Positions 24,206-31,130 of a stretch of 64,000 nt of DNA are shown piece after piece. How positions within the stretch are numbered: the stretch's first letter is position 1; each line of letters opens with the position of its first letter. The DNA is from Escherichia coli (GTDB lineage: Bacteria > Pseudomonadota > Gammaproteobacteria > Enterobacterales > Enterobacteriaceae): the NCBI RefSeq assembly GCF_013315695.1, contig NZ_CP054353.1, one strand, 5' to 3'. Below the pieces are notes generated by a model. It was not told the DNA's origin. It saw only the letters and a program-made list of their open reading frames with translations, and searched no databases. The position numbers and the translations under genes were made by a program.

Positions 24206-24298
24206 GGTGAGGTGGCCGAGAGGCTGAAGGCGCTCCCCTGCTAAGGGAGTATGCGGTCAAAAGCTGCATCCGGGGTTCGAATCCCCGCCTCACCGCCA
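24206..24298 (+). tRNA. serV: tRNA-Ser (anticodon GCU), long variable arm
   Basis: 93-nt sequence GGTGAGGTGGCCGAG...GGTTCGAATCCCCGCCTCACCGCCA with anticodon loop CUGCUAA. Confidence 0.95.
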
Positions 24299-24301
24299 TT
24301 T

Positions 24302-24378
24302 GCATCCGTAGCTCAGCTGGATAGAGTACTCGGCTACGAACCGAGCGGTCGGAGGTTCGAATCCTCCCGGATGCACCA
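24302..24378 (+). tRNA. argV: tRNA-Arg (anticodon ACG)
   Basis: 77-nt GCATCCGTAGCTCAG...GGTTCGAATCCTCCCGGATGCACCA with anticodon ACG. Confidence 0.95.
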
Positions 24379-24440
24379 TCTCTTACTTGATATGGCTTTA
24401 GTAGCGGTATCAATATCAGCAGTAAAATAAATTTCCCGAT

Positions 24441-24517
24441 GCATCCGTAGCTCAGCTGGATAGAGTACTCGGCTACGAACCGAGCGGTCGGAGGTTCGAA
24501 TCCTCCCGGATGCACCA
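24441..24517 (+). tRNA. argY: tRNA-Arg (anticodon ACG), identical copy
   Basis: Identical 77-nt tRNA preceded by an identical 62-bp spacer. Confidence 0.95.
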
Positions 24518-24579
24518 TCTCTTACTTGATATGGCTTTAGTAGCGGTATCAATATCAGCAGTAAAATAAATTTCCCGAT

Positions 24580-24656
24580 GCATCCGTAGCTCAGCTGGAT
24601 AGAGTACTCGGCTACGAACCGAGCGGTCGGAGGTTCGAATCCTCCCGGATGCACCA
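24580..24656 (+). tRNA. argZ: tRNA-Arg (anticodon ACG), identical copy
   Basis: Identical 77-nt tRNA preceded by an identical 62-bp spacer. Confidence 0.95.
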
Positions 24657-24718
24657 TCTCTTACTTGATATGGCTTTAGTAGCGGTATCAATATCAGCAG
24701 TAAAATAAATTTCCCGAT

Positions 24719-24795
24719 GCATCCGTAGCTCAGCTGGATAGAGTACTCGGCTACGAACCGAGCGGTCGGAGGTTCGAATCCTCCCGGATGCACCA
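24719..24795 (+). tRNA. argQ: tRNA-Arg (anticodon ACG), identical copy
   Basis: Identical 77-nt tRNA preceded by an identical 62-bp spacer. Confidence 0.95.
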
Positions 24796-24910: not shown

Positions 24911-25053
24911 ATCCAAAAAATTTCCTTCAAAAATATCTCATTTCTAAATAACTACTTTATCCATTTCCTGAATTTTCTTCTCCTTCGCCATCAGCGACAA
25001 AATCAAGCAATTACGCTAAAGTAGCGTCATATTTTTCGACTTGCGAGAAGACC

Positions 25054-25620
25054 ATGTACGAGCGTTATGCAGGTTTAATTTTTGATATGGATGGCACCAT
25101 CCTGGATACCGAGCCTACGCACCGTAAAGCGTGGCGCGAAGTATTAGGGCACTACGGTCTTCAGTACGATGTTCAGGCGATGATTGCGCTTAATGGCTCG
25201 CCCACCTGGCGTATTGCTCAGGCAATTATTGAGCTGAATCAGGCCGATCTCGACCCGCATGCGTTAGCGCGTGAAAAAACAGAAGCAGTAAGAAGTATGC
25301 TGCTGGATAGTGTCGAGCCGCTTCCTCTTGTTGAAGTGGTGAAAAGTTGGCATGGTCGTCGCCCAATGGCTGTAGGAACGGGGAGTGAAAGCGCCATCGC
25401 TGAGGCATTGCTGGCGCACCTGGGATTACGCCGTTATTTTGACGCCGTCGTCGCTGCCGATCACGTCAAACACCATAAACCCGCGCCAGACACATTTTTG
25501 TTGTGCGCGCAGCGTATGGGCGTGCAACCGACACAGTGTGTGGTCTTTGAAGATGCCGATTTCGGTATTCAGGCGGCCCGTGCAGCAGGCATGGACGCTG
25601 TGGATGTTCGCTTGCTGTGA
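25054..25620 (+). CDS. yqaB: HAD-superfamily sugar-phosphate phosphatase
   Basis: 188-aa ORF with HAD motif I (IFDMDGTILDT); synteny. Confidence 0.9.
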   Translation: MYERYAGLIFDMDGTILDTEPTHRKAWREVLGHYGLQYDVQAMIALNGSPTWRIAQAIIELNQADLDPHALAREKTEAVRSMLLDSVEPLPLVEVVKSWHGRRPMAVGTGSESAIAEALLAHLGLRRYFDAVVAADHVKHHKPAPDTFLLCAQRMGVQPTQCVVFEDADFGIQAARAAGMDAVDVRLL

Positions 25621-26045
25621 GTGAAGCGTTATCGCTTTTCTCGTTGTTTGCCAGTAGTTTTCTCAGCGCTACACTATTACCCGGCAACTCCGAAGTCGTG
25701 CTGGTGGCAATGTTGCTTTCCGGGATCAGTCATCCCTGGGTTTTAGTTTTAACAGCAACAATGGGTAATAGCCTTGGAGGGTTAACTAACGTTATCCTTG
25801 GGCGTTTCTTTCCATTGCGTAAAACATCGCGCTGGCAAGAGAAAGCTACCGGCTGGCTGAAACGCTATGGTGCAGTCACGCTATTATTAAGCTGGATGCC
25901 CGTGGTTGGCGATTTACTGTGTCTGTTAGCGGGATGGATGCGCATCTCGTGGGGACCGGTAATCTTTTTTTTGTGCCTTGGTAAAGCGTTACGCTATGTT
26001 GCAGTTGCAGCAGCTACCGTTCAGGGCATGATGTGGTGGCACTAA
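25617..26045 (+). CDS. yqaA: Small inner-membrane protein (DedA/SNARE-associated-like)
   Basis: 142-aa hydrophobic ORF overlapping the yqaB stop. Confidence 0.85.
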   Translation: MSEALSLFSLFASSFLSATLLPGNSEVVLVAMLLSGISHPWVLVLTATMGNSLGGLTNVILGRFFPLRKTSRWQEKATGWLKRYGAVTLLLSWMPVVGDLLCLLAGWMRISWGPVIFFLCLGKALRYVAVAAATVQGMMWWH

Positions 26046-26090
26046 TTGTAGGCCTGCACATATGGTCACCATTACAGTTATGCTAATTAA

Positions 26091-27674
<1,584 letters not shown>

Positions 27675-27682
27675 CAGAAAAG

Positions 27683-27755
27683 AAAAAGGCCACTCGTGAG
27701 TGGCCAAAATTTCATCTCTGAATTCAGGGATGATGATAACAAATGCGCGTCTTTC
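27683..27755 (-). ncRNA. micA: MicA (SraD) small RNA, Hfq-dependent repressor of ompA and other envelope mRNAs
   Basis: Reverse complement reads GAAAGACGCGCATTTGTTATCATCATCCCTGAATTCAGAGATGAAATTTTGGCCACTCACGAGTGGCCTTTTT, terminator hairpin included; sits in the gshA-luxS gap. Confidence 0.9.
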
Positions 27756-27823
27756 ATATACTCAGACTCGCCTGGGAAGAAAGAGTTCAGAAAATTTTTA
27801 AAAAAATTACCGGAGGTGGCTAA

Positions 27824-28339
27824 ATGCCGTTGTTAGATAGCTTCACAGTCGATCATACCCGGATGGAAGCGCCTGCAGTTCGGGTGGCGAAAACAATGAA
27901 CACCCCGCATGGCGACGCAATCACCGTGTTCGATCTGCGCTTCTGCGTGCCGAACAAAGAAGTGATGCCAGAAAGAGGGATCCATACCCTGGAGCACCTG
28001 TTTGCTGGTTTTATGCGTAACCATCTTAACGGTAATGGCGTAGAGATTATCGATATCTCGCCAATGGGCTGCCGCACCGGTTTTTATATGAGTCTGATTG
28101 GTACGCCAGATGAGCAGCGTGTCGCTGATGCCTGGAAAGCGGCAATGGAAGACGTGCTGAAAGTGCAGGATCAGAATCAGATCCCGGAACTGAACGTCTA
28201 CCAGTGTGGCACTTACCAGATGCACTCGTTGCAGGAAGCGCAGGATATTGCGCGTAACATTCTGGAACGTGACGTGCGCATCAACAGCAACGAAGAACTG
28301 GCGCTGCCGAAAGAGAAGTTGCAGGAACTGCACATCTAG
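27824..28339 (+). CDS. luxS: S-ribosylhomocysteine lyase (AI-2 synthase)
   Basis: 171-aa translation with the HTLEH metal-binding motif. Confidence 0.97.
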
Positions 28340-28365
28340 TCAGTAAACTATCTTCACAATTAATT

Positions 28366-28400
28366 GAAAAAAGCCAGTTCAAATGAACTGGCTTAGTTGT
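28366..28400. terminator. Bidirectional rho-independent terminator between luxS and emrB
   Basis: Hairpin gccagttc-aaat-gaactggc flanked by an A-run upstream and T-rich sequence downstream. Confidence 0.6.
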
Positions 28401-28402
28401 AC

Positions 28403-29941
28403 TTAGTGCGCACCGCCTCCGCCGCCACCTGCGCCAAATGGCGGTTTAGCAAACCACACCAGCCCCAGCAAGACGAGGAATATCCCGGCTGACATCCAGA
28501 AGATCTCATTGGCGGAAATAATCAGCCCCTGATTGGTGATCTGCTGGGCAATCCAGCCTGATGCCTGCTGTTGCGTCATCCCAAGCCCTTCCAGTTGACT
28601 GTACATCGCCTGGGCATTCGGGTTGAACGGGTTTACCGACTCAGTCAACTGCGCATGGTGCAGCGACTCGTGGTTGGTCCACATAGTCGTGGTTATCGAT
28701 GTGCCGATAGACCCCGCCAGCGTTCGCGTAAAGTTGGAGAGGCTCGATGCTGCCGCCAGTCGTTCCGGTGGCAAACCGGACAGCGTAATGGTGGTTAGCG
28801 GCATAAAGAAGCAGGCCACCGCAAAACCCTGGATAAACTGCGGCCAGGCCGACGCGCCAAAATCCATACCCGGTTCAAAGGTATAGGCACGCCAGTAGAA
28901 GCAGACGGCATACATAATAAAGCTGAAGGTTACCAGCCGCCGCATATCCAGTTTATGCGCGAAGCGGCCGATAATCGGCGACAGGATCACCGGAATAATT
29001 CCTACCGGCGCAGAGGCCAGACCTGCCCACGTTGCCGTGTAACCGTAGACCTCCTGCAACAACTGCGGCAGCAGAACAATCGCGCCGAAGTAGAGCATAT
29101 ACGCGAGGCTGATACACAAGCAGCCGATGGTGAAGTTGCGCGACTTAAACAACGACAGATCGACTATCGGGTTATCGTCGGTCAGCTCCCAGACAATCAG
29201 GAAGCAGATAGCCACCACCGCCACCACGGTGAGGATGATAATTTCCTGTGATGAGAACCAGTCCAGCTCTTTACCGCGGTCGAGCATAATCTGCAGGCTG
29301 CCGATACCAATAACCAGCAGTGCCAGCCCCACGGCATCAATCCGCCGCCGTTCGGTGCGGGTTTCACGTCCGCGCAGAGTTTGCAGTGTCATCAACACCA
29401 CCGCCACGCCAATCGGCACGTTGATGAAGAATATCCAGCCCCAGTGGTAATTATCGCTGATATACCCACCGAGGATCGGGCCGCAAATTGGCGCGACAAT
29501 CACCGTCATTGACCACAACGCCAGCGCGATCGAGCGTTTGGCTGGCGGGTAGTTATTCAGCAATAGACTTTGCGAAAGCGGGATCAGCGGCCCGGCGACA
29601 ATCCCCTGAATCACGCGGAAGAAGATCAGCATATTCAGGCTGCTGGAGACACCACATGCCCACGACGCAATAGCGAAGGCGATGGTGGACCAGAGGAACA
29701 GTTTCACTTCCCCGACGCGCTTTGCCAGCCAGCCGGTAAGCGGGATCGAGATGGCATTCGCCACCCCGAAAGAAGTGATTACCCACGTTCCCTGGCTGAG
29801 CGATGAGCCCAGATTCCCGGCGATAGTGGGGATCGCCACGTTAGCAATGGTGGAGTCCAGCACCTGCATGAATGTCGCCAGTGACAGCGCAATTGTCATA
29901 ATGACCAGTTGTGCGCCTTCCAGCGGTTTTTGCTGTTGCAT
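28403..29941 (-). CDS. emrB: Multidrug efflux MFS transporter EmrB (14-TMS DHA2 family)
   Basis: Polytopic membrane ORF; start trimmed to MQQQKPLEG (512 aa). Confidence 0.93.
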   Translation of the reverse strand: MQQQKPLEGAQLVIMTIALSLATFMQVLDSTIANVAIPTIAGNLGSSLSQGTWVITSFGVANAISIPLTGWLAKRVGEVKLFLWSTIAFAIASWACGVSSSLNMLIFFRVIQGIVAGPLIPLSQSLLLNNYPPAKRSIALALWSMTVIVAPICGPILGGYISDNYHWGWIFFINVPIGVAVVLMTLQTLRGRETRTERRRIDAVGLALLVIGIGSLQIMLDRGKELDWFSSQEIIILTVVAVVAICFLIVWELTDDNPIVDLSLFKSRNFTIGCLCISLAYMLYFGAIVLLPQLLQEVYGYTATWAGLASAPVGIIPVILSPIIGRFAHKLDMRRLVTFSFIMYAVCFYWRAYTFEPGMDFGASAWPQFIQGFAVACFFMPLTTITLSGLPPERLAAASSLSNFTRTLAGSIGTSITTTMWTNHESLHHAQLTESVNPFNPNAQAMYSQLEGLGMTQQQASGWIAQQITNQGLIISANEIFWMSAGIFLVLLGLVWFAKPPFGAGGGGGGAH

Positions 29942-29957
29942 CACACGCACCTCTGGA

Positions 29958-31130
29958 TTAGCCAGCGTTAGCTTTTACGATATCGTCGATCAGTTTATTG
30001 ACAGGTGCCAGGCTGATTTCACGCGCGGTGCTTACCGCGACCGGTGTGGAACGTACTTTGTTTGCCAGTACCTGACCGTCACGGTTAGTGGTATTGACAC
30101 TCACCAGCGTGGATAAACCGATACGCAGCGGGTATTGCTCCAGCTGTTTCTGGTCCAGTTCAATACGCACAGGCAGACGCTGAACGACTTTGATCCAGTT
30201 ACCGGTGGCGTTTTGCGCCGGAAGCAGTGAGAACGCGCTACCTGTGCCCATATCCAGACCAACCACTTTTCCGGTGTATTTCACATCATCGCCGTAAATA
30301 TCGGTGGTGATGGTGACCGGCTGACCGATACGCATATTGGCAATCTGCGTCTCTTTAAAGTTGGCATCCACCCACATATTGGTGGCTGGAACGACCGCCA
30401 TCAGCGGCGTCGTTGGGCTAATTTGCGCCCCAGGCTGTACCGCGCGGCGGGAGACATAACCGGTCATCGGACTGACAATACGGGTACGCTCCAGCGCCAG
30501 CCAGGCGTTACGTACTTCGGTGGCAGCCTGTTGTACGGCAGGCTGATCTTCCAGTTTCGTCCCCAGAATCATCGCCTGATTGGCATTGTATTGTTGAATA
30601 GCGACGTCCAGTTGCGCCTGGGCACTGGTGACGGCGTCGCGGGCGTGTTGCAGCTCTTCGCGACCAATCAGGTTGGCATTGCCCAGCGGCACACGGCGGT
30701 TGTAGTCGCTTTGTGCTTTCGCGAGGGCGATTTTTTGCACCTCAATATTCGCCTGCAACTGTTTGCTGTTAATCATCAGCTGGTGGGTTTGGCGAACGCT
30801 GGAAGCCAGTGCAGTTTTGGCTTTTTCAAACGCCTGGCGAGCATCTGTCGGGTCGAGAGTGACCAGCACGTCGCCTTCTTTTACAAAATCGGTGTTATCG
30901 GCCCAGACTTTCGTCACGCTGCCAGACACCTGAGACATAATTTGAATCTGATTCCCTGCCACGTATGCGTCATCGGTTTCTTCGAAATGACGCAGTACTA
31001 AAAACCAATAAATCCCTATCGCTACGGCAATAATTATAAAGAGCAAGGTGAGAAGGAGGAGCAGACGCTTACGTTTGCCGCTCTTCTTTACCGGTTGCTG
31101 CGGGGTTTGAGTCTCCGCATTTGCGCTCAT
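29958..31130 (-). CDS. emrA: Multidrug efflux membrane fusion protein EmrA
   Basis: Single N-terminal TM segment plus coiled-coil/HlyD-like periplasmic domain; start trimmed to MSANAETQ. Confidence 0.93.
   Translation of the reverse strand: MSANAETQTPQQPVKKSGKRKRLLLLLTLLFIIIAVAIGIYWFLVLRHFEETDDAYVAGNQIQIMSQVSGSVTKVWADNTDFVKEGDVLVTLDPTDARQAFEKAKTALASSVRQTHQLMINSKQLQANIEVQKIALAKAQSDYNRRVPLGNANLIGREELQHARDAVTSAQAQLDVAIQQYNANQAMILGTKLEDQPAVQQAATEVRNAWLALERTRIVSPMTGYVSRRAVQPGAQISPTTPLMAVVPATNMWVDANFKETQIANMRIGQPVTITTDIYGDDVKYTGKVVGLDMGTGSAFSLLPAQNATGNWIKVVQRLPVRIELDQKQLEQYPLRIGLSTLVSVNTTNRDGQVLANKVRSTPVAVSTAREISLAPVNKLIDDIVKANAG

Follow-up and report, generated by a model that had tools for sequence, protein, structure and literature searches.

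What does the 149-bp gap between gshA and luxS (27675-27823) encode, and on which transcripts does its product act? The gap lies in a window of 64 kb, the whole stretch of Escherichia coli DNA that was analysed here. The original prediction, made from the raw sequence, placed the gene of the small RNA (sRNA) MicA in this gap, on the minus strand, just after the gshA stop codon and upstream of luxS. A covariance-model search for MicA was set as the test beforehand. The Rfam model RF00078 (MicA) matches the minus strand at 27684-27755 over its full length (model positions 1-75 of 75), with 83.9 bits against a gathering score of 41 (E 1.3e-12). This match, the ORF list and the K-12 annotation agree on the predicted strand and position. 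The coordinates first given are exact for the gap as a whole, whereas the RNA itself covers only 72-73 nt of it (27683/27684-27755). It begins with the G at 27755 (+1) and ends within the U-run at 27683-27687. Outside the RNA, the other 68 bp of the gap (27756-27823) are occupied by the micA promoter (minus strand) and the luxS Shine-Dalgarno sequence (plus strand); the former lies within the luxS leader. The micA gene is opposite in strand to both gshA and luxS, a layout equal to that of K-12 (Table 1).

Table 1. Features of the gshA-luxS region, with positions in the window.
Feature	Position	Strand	Basis or remark
gshA (TTG start)	26118-27674	+	ORF list
sigma-S P1 promoter fragment, inside gshA	27454-27492	+	primers KU40 and KU41A match exactly
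Long luxS 5' leader (P1 transcript), published; runs through micA, fully complementary to MicA	27492-27823	+	PMC2956633 and sequence
gshA stop codon	27672-27674	+	convergent with micA, the MicA U-run ending 8 nt away
micA gene (MicA sRNA, 72-73 nt)	27683-27755	-	Rfam RF00078 and mapped K-12 annotation b4442
Rho-independent terminator: stem GGCCACU/AGUGGCC (27705-27688), loop CACG, U-tail	27683-27705	-	terminator scan
A/U-rich linker AAAUUUU, MicA nt 44-50	27706-27712	-	unpaired in Rfam structure and MFE fold
Stem-loop 1, MicA nt 24-43: CAUC-C-CUG / loop AAUU / CAG-A-GAUG	27713-27732	-	Rfam consensus structure, MFE fold
5' targeting region, single-stranded, MicA nt 7-25	27731-27749	-	duplex with K-12 ompA
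Sigma-E-type promoter: -35 TGAACTC (27789-27783), 16-nt spacer, -10 TCTGA (27766-27762), 6-nt discriminator	27762-27789	-	sequence motif
AT-rich block gtaatttttttaaaaatttt upstream of the -35 element	27791-27810	-	sequence
luxS Shine-Dalgarno GGAGG (27812-27816) and start codon (27824-27826)	27812-27826	+	sequence, ORF list
luxS	27824-28339	+	ORF list

In the Rfam scan of the whole window, MicA is the sole non-tRNA family above its gathering score. A scan of 25000-31000 with an E-value threshold returned one match besides MicA, the archaeal C/D-box snoRNA sR39 at 29228-29285 inside emrB, which was dismissed as chance (17.4 bits against a gathering score of 50, E 0.62). The tRNA genes of the window include a cluster at 24206-24795 (+), just upstream of yqaB, in which a tRNA-Ser(GCT) is followed by four tRNA-Arg(ACG) with equal Rfam scores and a spacing of 139 nt; we take this cluster to correspond to serV-argVYZQ of K-12. 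A lone tRNA with a CAT anticodon at 58596-58671 (+) is called tRNA-Met by ARAGORN. The K-12 neighbourhood of this site presumably contains ileY, a tRNA-Ile whose CAU anticodon is lysidine-modified, and the tRNA-Met call may be a misnaming based on the anticodon only.

The stretch 27660-27840 aligns to E. coli K-12 MG1655 with 100% identity and zero differences. The K-12 record annotates an ncRNA there, micA (b4442, 'small regulatory RNA MicA'), between luxS and gshA and on the opposite strand, which maps to 27683-27755. Because the stretch is identical to a K-12 sequence with an annotated micA, the RF00078 match is not due to chance. The flanking 3.5 kb is 98.66% identical to K-12 and has 47 mismatches, none of them inside 27660-27840; with about 2.4 mismatches expected, their absence from these 181 nt is not significant on its own. 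RNA, promoter and terminator are identical to those of MicA (SraD; K-12 micA b4442, RF00078) over this stretch, and flanking genes, strand and structure are the same as in K-12, with no difference within the element. The element at 27683-27755 is the known micA gene, neither a new member of the family nor a variant, as the original prediction had it in calling this a known element.

A stretch of 301 nt around the gene (27600-27900) was found in 5423 of 5426 complete E. coli genomes, with an identity of at least 99% in 5272. No match to it was found in three of the 5426, and at least one genome has three matching places. The PGAP-annotated RefSeq E. coli record NZ_CP025842.1, whose DNA is identical to 27600-27900, carries gshA, luxS and emrB at 1576-1724 and leaves micA unannotated, whereas the K-12 record annotates it. 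A survey based on annotation would miss micA in this record and probably in other PGAP records as well. That PGAP-annotated RefSeq records lack micA at this site could be taken to mean that the locus holds a decayed or silent remnant that resembles MicA and is unexpressed in this strain. Yet gene, promoter and terminator are base for base those of K-12, in which the RNA has been experimentally characterised, and expression of the approximately 70-nt MicA has been demonstrated for the identical K-12 sequence (PMC2956633, PMC4618604, PMC1851643). Since the underlying DNA is identical, the missing annotation is an omission of the pipeline, and we give the idea of a remnant practically no credence.

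From 5' to 3', the micA product comprises an unpaired 5' region, stem-loop 1 (nt 24-43), the AAAUUUU linker (nt 44-50), the terminator (nt 51-68) and a U-run. Its MFE fold (-21.2 kcal/mol, z = -3.05 against shuffles) reproduces stem-loop 1 and the terminator hairpin. This hairpin, which the original prediction described as facing gshA, is found at 27688-27705, where it reads ggccactcgtgagtggcc as plus-strand text. On the minus strand it has a 7-pair stem with 5 G-C pairs and a 4-nt loop, followed by the tail TTTTTCTTTT, and a terminator was called on that strand only. The linker and the 3' U-run are putative Hfq-binding features, and the linker coincides with the published Hfq-protected site as given by the Hfq footprint (MicA review, PMC4618604). 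Two open reading frames were rejected as coding candidates: one of 46 aa that overlaps the gap on the plus strand (27696-27836) and one of 48 aa on the minus strand (27611-27757). The start codon of the latter is absent from the RNA because its ATG (27757-27755) straddles the MicA +1.

To collect related loci, species-representative genomes were scanned with a pattern of the 5' seed, yielding at least 120 loci. These loci belong to Enterobacterales and include Escherichia, Citrobacter, Enterobacter, Klebsiella, Yersinia, Serratia, Pantoea, Erwinia, Dickeya, Pectobacterium, Hafnia, Edwardsiella and Rahnella, among others. Among the matches listed, luxS lies upstream and divergent, and gshA downstream and convergent, of micA in all 110 testable loci; the other 10 of those listed are cut by contig ends and stand outside this count. 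The matches listed comprise 86 distinct MicA sequences, in which 98.5% of cells form standard pairs on the Rfam structure, compared with 29-52% in slid controls. Compensatory changes on both sides occur in 4 of the 14 stem pairs among these sequences, and most other pairs are invariant. For stem-loop 1 the paired share of cells is 98.0%, and both sides have changed in 3 of its 7 pairs. Among the matches listed, the terminator stem has 6 pairs that never vary and shows covariation at the loop-proximal pair (A-U 71, U-A 6, G-C 2, C-G 1). Compensatory changes support both stems, with this support resting on 4 of the 14 pairs; invariant pairs are uninformative on covariation either way. Nucleotides 1-27 are invariant except for positions 2 and 16 in the 86 distinct sequences among the matches listed, but this is mostly fixed by the search pattern: as the loci were collected with an exact 5' seed, seed conservation is not independent evidence. 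The gap between the MicA U-run and the gshA stop codon measures 4-20 nt, with a mode of 8, in the 70 measurable species among the matches listed, and this close convergent packing of micA and gshA is conserved well beyond E. coli. On the other side of micA, nine loci have the luxS start at 124-201 nt from the MicA +1, compared with mostly about 68-90 nt elsewhere, which implies that 50-130 nt have been inserted there between the micA promoter and luxS.

Upstream of the RNA, the arrangement TGAACTC-N16-TCTGA-N6-G agrees at the motif level with the published micA promoter in spacer and discriminator, and with the sigma-E consensus GGAACTTTT / GTCAAA (PMC1804206). The published promoter has a spacer of 16 and a discriminator of 6; the C of its -10 box is invariable, and an AT-rich element farther upstream is conserved (PMC1851643). 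Among the matches listed, 110 distinct promoters could be compared. AAC at -32 to -30 is present in 109-110 of them, G at -12, T at -11, C at -10 and T at -9 in 104-109 (C at -10 itself in 109), and A at -7, T at -1 and G at +1 each in all 110. The A+T content at -58 to -37 averages 82% over these promoters of the matches listed, compared with 49% in the spacer.

For the duplex with ompA, the calculation took the 26 unpaired nt at the 5' end of MicA and the ompA region from -50 to +20. Nucleotides 7-25 of MicA pair with K-12 ompA at -22 to -5, across the Shine-Dalgarno region (-23.1 kcal/mol). Among 2000 shuffled seeds a single one did equally well, and the site is the best one along the whole ompA leader. 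It agrees with the antisense mechanism described for ompA (PMC2956633; PMC4618604). The calculation with full-length MicA and the full ompA leader was discarded, as it gave an unrealistic interaction of 65 nt that was equalled by 6 of 500 shuffles.

The explanation that we favour is that of a sigma-E-induced, Hfq-binding sRNA that acts on ompA and other mRNAs and overlaps the luxS leader. Envelope stress would activate sigma-E, and polymerase carrying sigma-E would use the promoter at 27762-27789 and initiate at the G at 27755. Transcription would terminate at the hairpin and U-tail (27705-27683), 8 nt before the gshA stop codon, and the resulting RNA of 72-73 nt would bind Hfq through its A/U linker and U-tail. 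By pairing of its single-stranded 5' end with ompA and further envelope mRNAs at their ribosome-binding regions, it would then block translation, promote mRNA decay and lower the load of outer-membrane proteins; phoP and lamB are among the published targets. Since the long luxS leader contains micA in antisense orientation, MicA is also fully complementary to the luxS transcripts that start from the sigma-S promoter P1 inside gshA. The identity, boundaries, structure, promoter motif, ompA complementarity, synteny and conservation on which this explanation builds are observed here; sigma-E dependence, Hfq binding, target repression and luxS processing come from the literature on the identical K-12 sequence (PMC2956633, PMC1851643, PMC1804206, PMC4618604). 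Model score, structure, locus, promoter motif and ompA complementarity, the defining features of MicA that can be read from sequence, are all as expected for it. Nothing in the sequence contradicts this explanation, and taken as a whole we regard it as close to certain.

In this role, MicA resembles RybB and MicL, the other sigma-E-dependent, Hfq-binding sRNAs of enterobacteria, with which it shares the type of promoter, a 5' seed that represses mRNAs of outer-membrane proteins or lipoproteins, and a Rho-independent terminator with a U-tail (PMC1804206, PMC4618604). RybB and MicL differ from MicA in sequence, locus and target set, and the Rfam scan gave no match to either of them within the 64-kb window.

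The original prediction further held that antisense overlap with luxS or gshA transcripts can occur. For luxS this overlap is already documented. Udekwu 2010 mapped P1, a luxS start that depends on sigma-S, to a G that lies within gshA at -332 relative to the AUG, and the transcripts from P1 traverse micA (PMC2956633). Position -332 from the luxS AUG corresponds to 27492 in the window and is a G, and the primers KU40 and KU41A, which bound the active 38-bp P1 fragment (PMC2956633), match 27454-27492 exactly. A shorter luxS RNA, R3, overlaps MicA by 14-15 nt; it accumulates on MicA overexpression and is absent in an RNase III mutant (PMC2956633). A sigma-70-like sequence, ATGATA-18-TATACT, is present on the plus strand at 27733-27762, partly inside micA, with its -10 element immediately upstream of the +1 of MicA, which lies on the opposite strand. 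If used, it would give luxS transcripts that begin near 27769; such a pattern is found once where 0.9 matches are expected by chance. The proximal 70 bp upstream of luxS had no promoter activity in the hands of Udekwu 2010, yet the 5' end of R3 was TAP-enhanced, a result termed perplexing in that work itself (PMC2956633). Whether or not this sequence may serve as a proximal luxS promoter, a role that we considered, it was kept out of the explanation.

The arrangement invites the reading that MicA acts mainly in cis, as an antisense RNA or by transcriptional interference on luxS, that it links envelope stress to AI-2 quorum sensing in this way, and that its targets in trans are secondary. MicA is fully complementary to the P1 leader, its promoter, on the other strand, is 20-35 nt ahead of the luxS AUG, formation of R3 needs both MicA and RNase III (PMC2956633), and micA is linked to luxS in every locus examined (110 of 110 testable, among the matches listed). 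Like the cis-antisense RNAs that cover the 5' UTR of a divergent gene, such as those of the pairs micC/ompN and symR/symE (PMC7967276), MicA overlaps the long luxS leader from the opposite strand, and the MicA/luxS duplex is an RNase III substrate as for cis-encoded antisense RNAs (PMC2956633, PMC7967276). However, the level of LuxS protein was unchanged upon MicA overexpression (Udekwu 2010, PMC2956633), and a review from 2015 lists the effect of MicA on luxS as unclear (PMC4618604). The most conserved part of MicA is its 5' seed, which matches the ribosome-binding region of ompA, and the conserved synteny could merely reflect an old gene order that was left undisturbed. The established function of MicA, unlike that of cis-antisense RNAs, is exerted in trans via Hfq. 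A main role in cis is therefore improbable in our judgement, and we retain repression of ompA and other envelope mRNAs in trans as the principal activity, with the luxS overlap as an accompanying property.

For gshA, the overlap is a conjecture, plausible from geometry. MicA stops short of the gshA coding sequence by 8 nt, and the plus strand forms the same hairpin within a fold of -22.8 kcal/mol (z = -3.8). With a gap of 8 nt and no terminator called on the plus strand, the gshA transcript must extend at least into the hairpin. Udekwu 2010 considered an overlap with gshA transcripts and pursued luxS instead (PMC2956633), and the literature searched yielded neither a documented gshA 3' end nor a gshA-MicA interaction.

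It may be asked whether the hairpin at 27688-27705 is a shared, bidirectional terminator that ends both the minus-strand MicA and the plus-strand gshA mRNA, in which case the 3' ends would overlap and the two RNAs could pair. Several observations point that way: the short distance between the gshA stop and the MicA U-run, 8 nt here and 4-20 nt in the 70 species measured among the matches listed; the hairpin that the plus strand folds at the energy and z given above; the lack of any other plus-strand terminator signal between the gshA stop and luxS; and the lack of evidence for a polycistronic gshA-luxS message in E. coli (Udekwu 2010, PMC2956633). A bidirectional intrinsic terminator is defined by an A-tract upstream and a T-tract downstream of the hairpin, and the hairpin at 27688-27705 falls outside this definition. 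After the stem, the minus strand has the tail TTTTTCTTTT, whereas the plus strand continues with AAAATTTCAT instead of a T-run, and the terminator scan gave no call for the plus strand at this site. In addition, luxS transcripts that start from P1 inside gshA read through it (PMC2956633), and no gshA 3'-end map that would place an end here was found in the literature searched. A shared terminator is accordingly doubtful, although it keeps somewhat more weight than a main role of MicA in cis. We regard it as quite unlikely that the MicA terminator hairpin is also the 3'-end structure of the gshA mRNA and that MicA, or its transcription, affects gshA 3'-end formation or stability. We continue to read the hairpin as the terminator of MicA.

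A separate hairpin is found beyond luxS. The 10-pair palindromic sequence AAGCCAGTTCA...TGAACTGGCTT at 28371-28394 lies between the convergent genes luxS (ending at 28339) and emrB (ending at 28403) and looks like a terminator on both strands, with a T-rich tail on the minus strand (TTTTCAATTA) and a weaker one on the plus strand (AGTTGTACTT). It is a candidate shared terminator of luxS and emrB.

The element called in the gap is correct and confirmed, and it is ordinary and already known. The main value of the result is that of a positive control: a small, known sRNA was called correctly from raw sequence alone, including its strand and its terminator. The questions nearby, namely the consequence of the MicA/luxS overlap for LuxS output and the ends of the gshA transcripts, are old ones, and the window offers no special handle on them. 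If the hairpin were the 3'-end structure of the gshA mRNA, envelope stress would have a link to glutathione synthesis in addition to the one with luxS. As it stands, MicA is a textbook representative of the arm of the sigma-E envelope-stress response that represses, and the copy in this E. coli genome is that of the K-12 reference.
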